Both the position numbers and the translations under genes were made by a program. The notes under the pieces were generated by a model that worked only from the letters and a program-made list of their open reading frames with translations, made no database searches and was not told the origin of the DNA. From positions 107 through 64,106 of the forward strand of contig JBBKXQ010000103.1 of NCBI GenBank assembly GCA_037969565.1: a stretch of DNA of 64,000 nucleotides, written 5' to 3'. The DNA is from Acidimicrobiales bacterium (GTDB taxonomy: Bacteria > Actinomycetota > Acidimicrobiia > Acidimicrobiales > SZUA-35). How positions within the stretch are numbered: the first letter of the stretch is position 1; each line of letters starts with the position of its first letter. Of the stretch, positions 30,502 to 52,822 are shown piece after piece.

Positions 30502-32082
30502 TCAAGGCCGCAGCAGTGTGAGGGTGGCCGCGGCATTGTCGAGGAAACCTCCACCCAGATCGGGGAAGATCCCGAACACGACCGTGACGACCACGCTGAT
30601 CACGAGAACGGTGAGCGCCGCCGGAGGAATGTCGATCGGCCCGTAAGCCGGACCCGAATCAGCGTCGGAGTCAGTGTCGGCCGGCTCGGAGAAGACCATT
30701 GCGACGACGACGCGGAGGTAGAGGTATGCACCGACCACACTGGCAAGCATCGCAACCGCAGCCAGCCAGTAGTCGTCATCGGAAGCGGCCGCAGCAATGA
30801 TTCTGAACTTGGCGAAGAAGCCCGAAGTGAAGGGCACACCGGCCTGCGCAAACAGCAGCACGGCGAACAGGCCGGCCAGAAGGGGTTCGGATTTGGCCAG
30901 GCCCCGGTAGGAGTCGACGTCGTGCGAACCATCGCCGACTCTTCCCATCACCGTGATCACGGCGAAGGTGCCGATGATCATGGCGGCGTACGTGAACAGG
31001 TAGAAGAGGATGGACTTGCTGCCGAGAATGTCGGTGCCCTCATCGAGGGCGGCACTGTGCAATCCGACGAGCATGAACCCGGCGTGGGTGATCGACGAAT
31101 AGGCCATCATTCGCTTGATCTCGCTCTGAACGACGGCGAGGAAAGAGCCGACGACGAGCGACATCACCGCAAGCGCCGCCACGATCGGCAGCCATTCGTT
31201 GCTCAGGTCGCCGAACGCATACAGGAAGACACGAAGGAACCCGCCGAAGGCTGCGACCTTGACGGCCGACGCCATGAACGCGACGACCGGCGAAGGAGCG
31301 CCTTGGTAGACATCTGGCGTCCAGACGTGGAAGGGCACAGCCGAGACCTTGAAGGCGAACCCGACGAGAAGAAACCCGATACCGACCAGGAGCAATGAAG
31401 AACTCTCGGCCGGTACTTGGCCGTTGACACCGGGCTGGAAGAGGGAGCGATTGATGCCATTCAGGGTGGTCGAGCCTGTGGCTCCGTAGACCAGTGCGAT
31501 CCCGTAGAGGAAGATCGCCGACGACAACGCGCCCAGAACGAAGTACTTGAAACCGGCCTCCTGCGATTGGCTACGACGGAGATGCAACGCGGCGAGTACA
31601 TAAACGGCAATCGAGAGAATCTCGAGGCCGACGAACGAAACGATCAGGTCCTCGGCCGAGGCCAAGAGCACGCCGCCGGACGCCGACAGCAGGATCAGGG
31701 CATACCATTCCGGCCCTTCGAGGCCCTCCCGACGTAAGTAGTCGTCGAGAAGGAAGGCCACGAGAACCACCGAACAACAGATGATGCCGGTGATGAAGAT
31801 CGTGAAGTTGTCGACGACGATGGCGTTCGAGAGAACGTAGAACTCCCGTCGCCCGCCGATCGCCCCCTGTTCATTGACCCGGTCGGCGATCCATGGAAGG
31901 AACCCGGCGGCGATGATCGCTGACACGGCGGTGAAGGTGGCGGAGAACGCACCCGTCCGGGTACGCGGTATCAGCGATGTGATGGTGATGAGCAGCACAC
32001 CGGCGAGGGAGAGAATCACGAAAGGCCAAATCAACGACCACTCGATGTCGGGAGTTTGCACCTGTGCGAACTGGAGGGTCAT
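30502..32082 (-). CDS. nuoN: NADH-quinone oxidoreductase subunit N (14-gene operon)
   Basis: 526-aa antiporter-like protein with SQEAGFKYFVLGALSSAIFLYG. Terminal gene of the array. Confidence 0.93.
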   Translation of the reverse strand: MTLQFAQVQTPDIEWSLIWPFVILSLAGVLLITITSLIPRTRTGAFSATFTAVSAIIAAGFLPWIADRVNEQGAIGGRREFYVLSNAIVVDNFTIFITGIICCSVVLVAFLLDDYLRREGLEGPEWYALILLSASGGVLLASAEDLIVSFVGLEILSIAVYVLAALHLRRSQSQEAGFKYFVLGALSSAIFLYGIALVYGATGSTTLNGINRSLFQPGVNGQVPAESSSLLLVGIGFLLVGFAFKVSAVPFHVWTPDVYQGAPSPVVAFMASAVKVAAFGGFLRVFLYAFGDLSNEWLPIVAALAVMSLVVGSFLAVVQSEIKRMMAYSSITHAGFMLVGLHSAALDEGTDILGSKSILFYLFTYAAMIIGTFAVITVMGRVGDGSHDVDSYRGLAKSEPLLAGLFAVLLFAQAGVPFTSGFFAKFRIIAAAASDDDYWLAAVAMLASVVGAYLYLRVVVAMVFSEPADTDSDADSGPAYGPIDIPPAALTVLVISVVVTVVFGIFPDLGGGFLDNAAATLTLLRP

Positions 32083-33713
32083 TCGTCTGCTCCCTCGTTG
32101 CTCAGCACTGCATCTTCGCCGTTGCCCTCTTCGCCGTGCTCGAGGGCTTCGGTGAGTTGCTCGACCCCGGCGGGTTCGGCTGGAGCCTCCGGCTCACTCT
32201 CTACGACGCTCATGTGGACGAGGAGTTGGTCAACGGCCGGTTCGATCCGTTCGAGCACGGGCTTGGGATACACACCGAGGAACACGATCAACCCGAGCAA
32301 TGGAAGAATCGAGAGCATCTCGGAAACTCGAAGATCGGCCATCTTGGCATTCTCACCTTCGGCCTTTCCGTGGAAGACACGCTGGTAGGCCCAGAGAAGG
32401 TAGAGCGCAGCGAGGATCACCCCCGTGACGGCGACGACGGTCCACCAGCGAGCCGACTGGAACGCCCCGAGCAGAATCAGAAACTCTCCGGCGAATCCGT
32501 TCAGGCCAGGGAGCCCGATACTCGAGAGCATCACGAGCGTGAACACGCCGGCCATGATCGGCGCCGAACTCTGCAAGCCGCTTAGCTCGGAGATCTCACG
32601 GGTGTGCCGACGGTCGTAGATCCACCCGACGAGGATGAAGAGGGCACCGGTGGAAATTCCGTGGTTGACCATCTGCAAGACCGCGCCCTCGAGACCCTGC
32701 GGATTCAACGCAAAGATGCCGAGAACGATGAATCCCATGTGGGCCACCGAGGAGTAGGCGACTACTCGCTTGAGGTCCTTCTGCATGGTTGCCACGACGG
32801 CGCCGTAGACGATGCCGATCACCCCGAGCGTGAGGAAGACCCACGCCAGATCTTGGGCGGCCTGAGGGAAGAGGTAGAGCCCGAATCGGATGTATCCGTA
32901 GCTACCGAGTTTGAGCAGGACCCCGGCCAGGATCACCGACCCGGCGGTTGGTGCTTCGGTGTGCGCATCGGGAAGCCACGTGTGGAGGGGAAAGAGCGGG
33001 ACCTTCACGGCGAACCCCAGAGCGAAGCTGAGGAAGATGAGCGTTTGTGCCGTGCTGCCGATCGCAGGTGTGCCGTCGGGGAAGGTTGCTCCGGCCAGGC
33101 GGGTGACATCGAAGGTCAGTTCGCCGAGAGCATCGCGAGAGAGGAAGGCCGTTGACACGAGACCGACGAGCATGAGGGCCGAGCCCGCCATGGTGAAGAT
33201 GAAGAACTTCATGGCGGCGTAGACGCGGCGGCCGTGACCCCAGCCCCCGATCAGGAAATACATCGGCACGAGCACGATCTCGAAGAACAGGAAGAACAGC
33301 AGCAGATCGAGGGCCATGAACACGCCCATCGAGCCCGCCATCAAGACCGTGAGCCAGAAGTAATAGGGCTTCTTGTCGTGATCCGGTTCGGACGTGAGGA
33401 TCGCGATCGGAAAGAGCAGCCCGGTGAGAACGACGAGGAACAACGAGATTCCGTCGACGGCCAGGAACCACTGCAGGCCCAGGTCTTTGACCCATGTCTC
33501 CTGTACGACGAATTGGAATCCGCCGTCGGCCTTGTCGAACGACCAGAGGAGGTAGGCCGCCATGGCGCCGGTGATGGTGGTTCCTGCCAACGCAACCAGC
33601 TTGAGGTATTCAGCCCTGGACGACGGGAGGATCAGGATGAGCACCGCCGTCAAGAGCGGTACGAAGATGAGCGACGGCAGCAACGGCCACGCGATGGTTT
33701 CGGCGGCCAGCAT
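32079..33713 (-). CDS. nuoM: NADH-quinone oxidoreductase subunit M (14-gene operon)
   Basis: Start at ATG 33713 (MLAAETIAWPLL...), sharing 1 nt with the nuoL stop. Contains WLPDAHTEAPTAGSVILAGVLLKLGSYG. The tracked 121-aa Arg-rich extension is rejected. Confidence 0.93.
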   Translation of the reverse strand: MLAAETIAWPLLPSLIFVPLLTAVLILILPSSRAEYLKLVALAGTTITGAMAAYLLWSFDKADGGFQFVVQETWVKDLGLQWFLAVDGISLFLVVLTGLLFPIAILTSEPDHDKKPYYFWLTVLMAGSMGVFMALDLLLFFLFFEIVLVPMYFLIGGWGHGRRVYAAMKFFIFTMAGSALMLVGLVSTAFLSRDALGELTFDVTRLAGATFPDGTPAIGSTAQTLIFLSFALGFAVKVPLFPLHTWLPDAHTEAPTAGSVILAGVLLKLGSYGYIRFGLYLFPQAAQDLAWVFLTLGVIGIVYGAVVATMQKDLKRVVAYSSVAHMGFIVLGIFALNPQGLEGAVLQMVNHGISTGALFILVGWIYDRRHTREISELSGLQSSAPIMAGVFTLVMLSSIGLPGLNGFAGEFLILLGAFQSARWWTVVAVTGVILAALYLLWAYQRVFHGKAEGENAKMADLRVSEMLSILPLLGLIVFLGVYPKPVLERIEPAVDQLLVHMSVVESEPEAPAEPAGVEQLTEALEHGEEGNGEDAVLSNEGADE

Positions 33714-52372: not shown

Positions 52373-52381
52373 ACGGCAGCC

Positions 52382-52822
52382 TCAGCCTCTCTTCACGAGC
52401 GGTCGGCCATAGGAGCTCGTGGCGACGTCGGTCGAGGGCTTGGCCTTGCCCCGGTTCTGCCACTGCGACCACATGACGATCATTGCACCGAGGTAGATGT
52501 TGTAGATCACGACGGCGCCGAGATCGGAAAGCACCCGGTAGGTGATCTCGAATGGGAACCAACCACCACGGCTCTGCGCCGCGATCAAACCCCAGGCGTC
52601 CCAGATCCGGTCGGCTCGGAAGCTCCACTCGTTCTCGGCCAGGGTGAGCCACTGGTGGGGAACCACGCCGAACACGATGAAGAGCAAGAAGTAGATGTAG
52701 ATGGCGAAGAGCATCGACTCGCCCCACGTCATGTGATCTTCCGGGGCGCGACGTTTCCCGTAGACGACAATGCCACCGGCCATGGCGAGTGAGATCAAGA
52801 TTGAAACCACGAGGGCGACCAT
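52382..52822 (-). CDS. Small uncharacterised integral membrane protein, first gene of the bc-nuo array
   Basis: 146 aa with about 3 hydrophobic spans. GAGGAG lies 6 nt upstream of ATG 52822. No recognised motif. Confidence 0.7.
   Translation of the reverse strand: MVALVVSILISLAMAGGIVVYGKRRAPEDHMTWGESMLFAIYIYFLLFIVFGVVPHQWLTLAENEWSFRADRIWDAWGLIAAQSRGGWFPFEITYRVLSDLGAVVIYNIYLGAMIVMWSQWQNRGKAKPSTDVATSSYGRPLVKRG

Follow-up and report, generated by a model that had tools for sequence, protein, structure and literature searches.

In bacteria, the genes of complex I and those of complex III are normally kept in separate operons. What does it mean, then, if they follow each other without a break on one strand? 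The question is raised by a 64,000-nucleotide stretch of an Acidimicrobiales metagenome-assembled genome (MAG), here called the window, which lies on a contig of 62% GC. In it, seven genes for a chloroplast-like, b6-type Rieske/cytochrome b complex (g1 to g7, together the bc module) run directly into nuoA-N. We consider it probable that the 21 genes form one primary operon that serves aerobic respiration from NADH to cytochrome c and is headed by an operator of the redox regulator Rex.

The array extends from the ATG of g1 at 52822 to the stop codon of nuoN at 30502, as established by a listing of the open reading frames (ORFs), refinement of the starts and a junction table. The longest ORFs overshoot three starts, which were refined to GTG 43054 for nuoF, ATG 37837 for nuoI and ATG 33713 for nuoM. 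Pfam families could be assigned to 19 of the 21 products; g1 and g7 are the two left over. In the direction of transcription, the features are the following (aa, amino acids; nt, nucleotides):

52382-52822, minus strand: g1, first gene of the array, 146 aa, 3 membrane spans predicted from hydropathy
51956-52372, minus strand: g2, soluble 2x[4Fe-4S] dicluster ferredoxin, 138 aa (Pfam Fer4 families)
51061-51852, minus strand: g3, cytochrome b6-type protein (N-terminal half of cytochrome b), 263 aa (Pfam Cytochrome_B, 5.6e-45)
50221-50982, minus strand: g4, subunit IV-type protein (C-terminal half of cytochrome b), 253 aa (Pfam Cytochrom_B_C)
49327-50196, minus strand: g5, Rieske [2Fe-2S] protein, 289 aa (Pfam Rieske; motif CPHLGC...CPCHG)
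47753-49327, minus strand: g6, membrane-anchored dihaem cytochrome c, 524 aa (Pfam Cytochrome_CBB3 and Cytochrom_C)
46728-47753, minus strand: g7, last gene of the bc module, adjoining nuoA, 341 aa, 3 predicted spans
46710-46727, minus strand: spacer between g7 and nuoA, 18 nt, CATCGAGAGGACTTCTCT, with the Shine-Dalgarno sequence GAGAGGA only
46179-46709, minus strand: nuoA (Pfam)
45586-46179, minus strand: nuoB (Pfam)
45035-45589, minus strand: nuoC (Pfam)
43680-45026, minus strand: nuoD (Pfam)
43051-43674, minus strand: nuoE (Pfam)
41555-43054, minus strand: nuoF (Pfam; refined start)
39123-41558, minus strand: nuoG (Pfam)
37837-39126, minus strand: nuoH (Pfam)
37136-37837, minus strand: nuoI (Pfam; refined start)
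36558-37136, minus strand: nuoJ (Pfam)
36388-36557, minus strand: spacer between nuoJ and nuoK, 170 nt, unstructured, without terminator
36082-36387, minus strand: nuoK (Pfam)
33713-36079, minus strand: nuoL (Pfam)
32079-33713, minus strand: nuoM (Pfam; refined start)
30502-32082, minus strand: nuoN (Pfam)

The 14 nuo genes stand in canonical order and include the NADH-oxidising module NuoE, F and G, i.e. they encode a full NDH-1 as judged by Pfam. The families are Oxidored_q4, Oxidored_q6, Complex1_30kDa, Complex1_49kDa, 2Fe-2S_thioredx, Complex1_51K with NADH_4Fe-4S, and the NuoG domains for A to G; NADHdh, Fer4, Oxidored_q3, Oxidored_q2 and then three copies of Proton_antipo_M for H to N.

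The genes are packed tightly. From g1 to nuoN, the junctions measure 9, 103, 78, 24, -1, -1, 18, -1, -4, 8, 5, -4, -4, -4, -1, -1, 170, 2, -1 and -4 nt. Stop and start codons overlap at 11 of the 20 junctions (four ATGA, one GTGA and six TGATG); of the others, six are separated by 2-24 nt and three by larger gaps (78, 103 and 170 nt). Consensus scans detected no sigma-70-like promoter between 27.5 and 54 kb of the window and no convincing intrinsic terminator at any junction of the array. Nor do the spacers of 18, 78, 103 and 170 nt fold better than shuffled sequences (z = +2.0, +1.4, +0.6 and +1.3, respectively). The 170-nt gap is not a frameshifted tail of NuoJ, which has no in-frame continuation, and its z-score of +1.3 also rules out a structured element. 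Co-directional genes, short or overlapping spacers and scans without an internal terminator are what a single operon looks like. A preliminary description of the locus had already mapped the 21 co-directional genes from 52822 to 30502 with their spacers and overlap types, and every coordinate was reproduced; the three refined starts are evidently the ones it had relied on. Its statements that the bc module stops 18 nt before nuoA, and that this spacer holds a ribosome-binding site and neither a stem-loop nor a promoter, equally agree with the junction table, the fold and the blank scans.

Where, then, is the array controlled? The region between g1 and a divergent cytochrome c gene comprises 282 nt. 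Three features matter here:

52923-52940, palindrome: TTGTGAACGTCTGCACAA, Rex-operator-like, 1 mismatch to TTGTGAA-N4-TTCACAA
53105-54145, plus strand: divergent membrane-anchored monohaem cytochrome c, 346 aa (CSGCH at 179)
61991-62695, minus strand: rex, 234 aa (Pfam Put_DNA-bind_N and CoA_binding)

The palindrome is 101 nt upstream of the ATG of g1, is abutted by a -10-like box TAGATT (TANNNT) and is the only site in the 64-kb window with at most one mismatch to the Rex consensus. Thus, the locus combines an 18-bp palindrome in a promoter region with a rex gene in the same genome, and Rex would be predicted to bind at 52923-52940. The rex gene heads a group of haem-biosynthesis genes (GluTR, porphobilinogen deaminase, ALAD and a class-III aminotransferase). 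The divergent cytochrome c, orthologues of which are found upstream of g1 in the same divergent orientation in most loci of the order, may be controlled from the same region as the array.

The relatives point to the same position. About 600 kb of order-level loci were scanned with up to two mismatches to the Rex consensus. The scan yielded 24 sites, one per locus, all of them 17-224 nt upstream of g1; of the 28 loci in which the region upstream of g1 is covered, 24 thus have a site. Not a single site was found before nuoA in these 600 kb. Across the relatives the half-sites of the operator are kept, while the N4 spacer and the flanks vary. A few matches with two mismatches between nuoB and nuoC in other orders were discarded, as they look like chance or coding conservation.

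Some further observations concern this region. Ahead of the Rex-like site, the motif (G)TGCTA(G/C)AC is conserved as well: in the window it occurs at about 53045-53058, in the Microthrixaceae locus L039 at 5017-5024, and in L047, L048, L051 and L053 it is 50-58 nt upstream of the operator. In L039 it is found just before a 5' boundary of RNA coverage (see below); it may be the -10 element of a distal promoter or the site of another regulator. In L026 and L027 (about 4061-4960), a monohaem cytochrome c gene lies just upstream of g1 on the same strand, and the array may there be one gene longer. Directly behind the divergent cytochrome c gene of the window, the gene at 54081-56519 (plus strand) encodes a product of 812 aa that combines four DUF4214 repeats with fibronectin type III domains.

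How old and how strict is the joint between the two blocks? The preliminary description had proposed to compare synteny in related genomes. Among the Acidimicrobiales genomes compared, none lacks the joint. The order g6-g7-nuoA-nuoB-nuoC is found in all 10 genomes of the same family with enough flanking sequence, and g1-g7-nuoA and onwards, up to the end of each contig, in 27 of 27 Acidimicrobiales/Microthrixaceae loci from named assemblies, among them Microthrixaceae MAGs and the isolate IMCC26207. It recurs in 14 of 14 further families of the Acidimicrobiales. The g7-nuoA spacer ranges from -1 to 68 nt in 39 order-level loci and is as short as 1-2 nt in those of the Microthrixaceae type; its sole conserved element is the Shine-Dalgarno sequence. 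No insertion between the two blocks was seen in about 70 order-level genomes. The joint is uninterrupted over at least 20 families, though the identity of g7 drops to 33% and the intergenic DNA has diverged completely.

The tight fusion is essentially confined to the order; in the class as a whole the linkage is looser. A sample of 120 Acidimicrobiia genomes was compared for the positions of cytochrome b6 and NuoB. In the window's order, nuoB lies 4-5 kb downstream of cytochrome b6 on the same strand in all 24 genomes that have both markers. The b6-type gene is missing in three genomes of two families with small genomes. In the other orders, 48 genomes carry both markers on one contig. They are arranged head to tail within 6.5 kb in 7, co-directionally with 6.5-25 kb in between in 19, divergently in 11 and otherwise within 25 kb in 8; in the remaining 3, all of one family with genomes of roughly 1 Mb, they are about 0.7 Mb apart. 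The two blocks are linked class-wide (at most 25 kb apart in 45 of these 48 genomes), and outside the Acidimicrobiales they are mostly divergent or interrupted.

The 18 loci of other orders that were inspected contain the seven-gene module unchanged. There, the gene of a geranylgeranyl-reductase-like (GGR-like) FAD enzyme stands directly before nuoA, usually divergent from g1. Several families of the Acidimicrobiales have the GGR-like gene upstream of g1, beyond the divergent cytochrome c gene. The most parsimonious history would be an ancestral divergent pair, a GGR-nuoA-N arm and a g1-g7 arm with a common control region, from which the nuo block was later moved to the g7 arm in the Acidimicrobiales. 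In some lineages of other orders (L065, 11391-12011; L064, L066 and L069), the bc module and the GGR-like gene are separated by rex itself, which is divergent from the GGR-like gene. This is an independent hint at a functional tie of Rex and nuo across the class.

The arrangement can be read in any annotated genome of Ilumatobacter or IMCC26207. Yet no description of a bc-nuo operon was found in the full-text literature (subscription literature lay outside the search). The remark in the preliminary description that the organisation is unusual for bacteria is in keeping with this literature search; within the Acidimicrobiales it is the rule.

Transcripts are available from a relative, the Microthrixaceae MAG L039, in contigs of bioreactor metatranscriptomes. 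Its g7 ends at 10996 and its nuoA starts at 10999. Three contigs with 0-2 mismatches span this joint: 10870-11101 (X22), 10649-11114 (X24) and 10757-11039 (X25). At the other end, contigs from four runs of two studies begin at 5040-5046, and the preceding 830 nt (bins 4184-5015) have zero depth. The RNA thus has a 5' boundary that precedes g1 by about 115 nt and the operator-like site by 31-37 nt. A boundary that sharp, with zero depth upstream, argues against carry-over of DNA. A lake metatranscriptome covered another relative, L034, only sparsely, with no contig near the joint. A compost run labelled "TRANSCRIPTOMIC" (X20) was discarded as a source of RNA, since its depth is flat, intergenic DNA included, and its contigs reach 60 kb.

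Taken in sequence, the operon could work as follows. Transcription would start at a promoter in the 282-nt divergent region upstream of g1, overlapped or followed by the Rex operator, where Rex would act as a repressor that senses NADH/NAD+. From there it would first pass over the seven bc genes, which would encode a b6-type menaquinol:cytochrome c oxidoreductase made up of a split cytochrome b (with a haem-ci-type cysteine and APWY at the Qo site), a Rieske protein, a dihaem cytochrome c, a bound-type dicluster ferredoxin and two membrane subunits. As there is no terminator, it would continue over the 18-nt spacer into nuoA-N, and the stop/start overlaps would couple translation at 11 of the 20 junctions. 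A rise in NADH would take Rex off its operator, and both enzymes would be induced together. Because of the short spacer and its conservation, read-through from g7 into nuoA is very likely also in the window's organism. That nuo has no additional promoter is much less certain. We infer that the same transcript is made in the window's organism and reaches nuoN.

Several points weigh against this scheme. Four relatives (L019, L020, L022 and L049) have no Rex-like site at up to two mismatches, and neither have the g1 and nuoA control regions of other orders. The 5' boundary in L039 is upstream of the operator, so that the site would have to act as a roadblock rather than by promoter occlusion, or there are two promoters. 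The L039 contigs are assembled, unstranded and of 3-6x depth, and they stem from another family than that of the window; those that cross the joint are all from one study. Their coverage is patchy, with gaps even inside g7; it thins after nuoE and is near zero from nuoF onwards, which means that a full-length transcript of 22 kb is not covered. No RNA runs with the window's own organism were found; it occurs in runs of unspecified kind whose contigs, 28-42 kb long, suggest DNA. Finally, promoters inside coding sequence may escape consensus scans, especially in a high-GC actinobacterium. The idea of a single transcription unit, which goes back to the preliminary description, draws its support from the tight order-wide joint, the sole conserved regulatory site before g1 and the relative's RNA across the joint; for the window's organism this support is indirect, and it leaves room for further internal promoters or for processing of the RNA. 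That such a unit would "enforce stoichiometric co-expression" was overstated. Co-transcription leaves protein ratios unfixed, and the RNA coverage of the relative is patchy and declines after nuoE.

Are there better explanations for the array? Two or more units might simply abut. Read-through would then exist, but nuoA-N would mainly be transcribed from a promoter of its own within the 3' part of g6 or g7 and would be regulated independently. Internal promoters are common in long respiratory operons, and the uneven depth of the L039 contigs fits. So does the situation in most other orders of the class, where nuo is separate with its own upstream gene and control region, the blocks being divergent or having rex and the GGR-like gene between them. 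All the same, we regard this as unlikely. A spacer of -1 to 68 nt overall, and of 1-2 nt in Microthrixaceae-type loci, with nothing but a Shine-Dalgarno sequence conserved, offers little to such a promoter; nuo is a classical Rex target, yet no conserved Rex-like site precedes nuoA; contigs run over the joint in three samples of the relative; and an insertion never split the blocks in the roughly 70 genomes. Alternatively, the juxtaposition might be neutral, i.e. inherited from a single ancestral rearrangement without functional consequence. The distribution would indeed follow if the nuo block had been relocated once, in the common ancestor of the order. That the joint then stayed unbroken over at least 20 families, while g7 fell to 33% identity and the intergenic DNA diverged, and that nuoA lost its operator, with the only Rex-like site of the order now before g1, makes this highly improbable.

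A different kind of proposal, to which the preliminary description had alluded with a "perhaps", is a physical supercomplex of complexes I and III, an NADH:cytochrome c oxidoreductase, in which g1, g7 or lineage-specific extensions of Nuo subunits would dock and co-translation would aid assembly. It is compatible with the Rex-headed operon and adds a structural claim to it. Gene order mirrors association in other systems: the actinobacterial qcr-cta neighbourhood goes with a III2IV2 supercomplex. The Sox operons of Sulfolobus are another precedent (PMC4122944). The linkage of the blocks far beyond the order (45 of 48 genomes) and a g7 with a conserved extracytoplasmic domain of no matched fold may be cited in favour, too. 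Against it, co-regulation by itself explains the linkage. Moreover, g1 and g7 stay with the bc module also where nuo is divergent or distant, including the genomes of about 1 Mb with 0.7 Mb in between, and therefore they are to be seen as subunits of the bc module rather than linkers specific for the fusion. A supercomplex is quite unlikely on this balance. The more specific version, a bacterial I+III respirasome in which g1, g7 and possibly the cytoplasmic dicluster ferredoxin dock the b6c complex to complex I or connect the two electrically, appears distinctly improbable. If it were true, gene order would reflect co-translational assembly, beyond co-regulation alone. The Rex-headed operon thus remains the reading that we prefer.

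What kind of enzyme does the bc module encode? With PF00033 in g3, PF00032 in g4, and PF00355 and a Rieske motif in g5, it has the composition of a split b6-type Rieske/cytochrome b complex, and by sequence it belongs to a non-canonical subclass. The four His ligands of g3 are spaced as in PetB (14 and 15), the C-terminus reads RKDGGISGPL, and the cysteine of a CLGG motif stands where b6 has its haem ci-binding Cys. Orthologues of g3 with 72-97% identity are present in 119 of 121 Acidimicrobiia genomes. The subunit IV-type protein g4 starts with a long Ala/Pro-rich extension and has the Qo motif APWY; the canonical P(E/D)WY is absent from it. The motif APWY indicates that the module is a member of the APWY clade. 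In g6 the haem motifs are CVNCH at 119 and CGRCH at 278, and the protein has two N-terminal membrane spans.

The three additional genes are conserved as well. An orthologue of g1 is the first gene of the module throughout the class, without any match in Pfam or NCBIfam. The ferredoxin g2 is 52-93% identical throughout the class; its best NCBIfam match, the NuoI subfamily, is weak and under the cut-off. For g7, two N-terminal spans, one C-terminal span and an extracytoplasmic alpha/beta domain are predicted, and it is kept behind g6 in 39 of 41 relatives. It matches nothing in Pfam or NCBIfam; the best hit of a PDB sequence search has E = 0.12, and a Foldseek comparison of its AlphaFold2 model (pLDDT 72) with the PDB gave nothing below E = 0.4.

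A long actinobacterial QcrB was not found in the contigs of the genome, which leaves the b6-type module as the only candidate for complex III; haem-copper oxidase genes are on other contigs. Being near-universal in the class and the sole candidate here, the module most likely has a housekeeping role in respiration. Judged from its sequence, it would be the class's menaquinol:cytochrome c oxidoreductase, with three extra conserved subunits (g1, g2 and g7); its specificity for the quinone and for cytochrome c is likewise deduced. Two other contigs carry related genes. On C98 (25076-25636), an orphan ORF of 186 aa resembles the N-terminal part of cytochrome b (45% identity to g3 over 170 aa); it has neither a subunit IV nor a Rieske neighbour, and a molybdopterin oxidoreductase gene follows downstream. 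C48 (4148 bp) contains a second, partial bc module that is cut by the contig edge inside a g7-like gene. Its identities to the window (cytochrome b6 89%, subunit IV 66%, Rieske protein 50%, cytochrome c 36%, g7-like protein 34%) are at the level of orthologues from other families, so C48 may be a mis-binned contig and not a paralogue.

Which known systems come close? Two consecutive respiratory complexes are also clustered in the qcrCAB-cta genes of Mycobacterium and Corynebacterium, i.e. likewise in the Actinomycetota, and a dihaem cytochrome c is common to both. Those clusters, however, combine complexes III and IV and have an unsplit QcrB, whereas the window combines III with I and has a split cytochrome b, with the oxidase genes on other contigs. 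Cytochrome b6f and the b6c complexes of Firmicutes (PetB/PetD/PetC; QcrABC of Bacillus) share with the module the split into b6 and subunit IV, the His spacing, the Rieske protein, the CLGG cysteine at the haem ci position and the C-terminus RK(D/Q)GGISGPL. They differ in having PEWY or PDWY instead of APWY; here, moreover, the cytochrome c is a separate dihaem protein, three additional conserved genes (those for the dicluster ferredoxin, g1 and g7) are present, and the module is joined to complex I genes.

The proposed control by Rex has its model in Streptomyces. In S. coelicolor, rex-hemACD and nuo are targets of Rex. In S. avermitilis, Rex binds a site of the type TTGTGAA-N4-TTCACAA in the promoter of nuoA1-N1 and represses it (PMC5355995). 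The window shares with nuoA1-N1 an actinobacterial nuoA-N of 14 genes, the operator consensus and a rex gene beside haem-biosynthesis genes. In contrast to Streptomyces, the operator and the RNA boundary of the relative lie 6 kb upstream of nuoA, before seven complex III-type genes, and nuoA has no control region of its own. What is new is a putatively Rex-controlled nuo operon that is extended upstream by a non-canonical complex III.

The cytochrome b itself has been met before. Kao and Hunte (2014) listed a split cytochrome b of Ilumatobacter, one of five pairs, in an APWY or PEWY-cytochrome c clade and described the APWY clade as uncharacterised (PMC4122944). To the APWY-clade clusters belong the Geobacter proteins ExtP and ExtQ (NF040969 and NF040970). 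With g3 above the ExtP cut-off (302 bits versus 290; 213 bits for cytochrome b6) and g4 showing APWY, the module resembles these clusters. The Geobacter clusters, though, are tied to the metabolism of p-cresol or of selenite/tellurite, not to complex I. The module is no ExtMNOPQS either: only g3 passes, g4 with 56 bits is far below the cut-off of 150 for ExtQ, and the context is nuo, not Ext. Since g3 exceeds an equivalog cut-off, automatic annotation would probably misname the housekeeping cytochrome b of the Acidimicrobiia as "selenite/tellurite reduction operon b-type cytochrome".

The downstream end of the unit is less clear-cut than its head:

29826-30416, minus strand: possible 22nd gene, 196 aa, 85 nt after nuoN, with weak similarity to receiver domains

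The NarP/NarL receiver matches of this ORF in NCBIfam are far below the cut-off, and no Pfam family matches. Downstream of it, a GC-rich hairpin (about 29760-29800) is followed by a T-tract, a terminator-like site at 29720-29704. The unit may in fact end with this 196-aa ORF and not with nuoN.

The genome has more nuo genes than these. At 13709-24655 the window contains a further nuo operon, which has 11 genes and lacks nuoE, F and G; its products are 30-49% identical to their paralogues of the 14-gene set, and no Rex-like site stands in front of it. On contig C19 (279-8729), a third, nuo-like cluster comprises membrane-arm genes only: a nuoA-like gene, one for a 449-aa protein and H-, J-, K-, L-, M- and N-like genes. 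Searches with tblastn detected no homologues of B, C, D or I in the C19 cluster. The C-terminus of its NuoJ-like protein is a tail of GAMDH repeats (MDHGAMDHGAMDHG...) with a possible role in metal binding.

For the Acidimicrobiales, two consecutive respiratory steps are thus probably transcribed and regulated together. In practice, a prediction of the Rex regulon in these organisms will fail if it considers the region upstream of nuoA. A whole, globally abundant order of marine, freshwater, soil and activated-sludge bacteria, the Microthrix-type filaments included, would have both complexes in one Rex-headed unit. This would provide a natural system for how cells balance two consecutive respiratory enzymes, it would allow asking whether fusion at the operon level accompanies the formation of supercomplexes, and it would open the biochemistry of b6-type complexes that combine an APWY motif with a ferredoxin.

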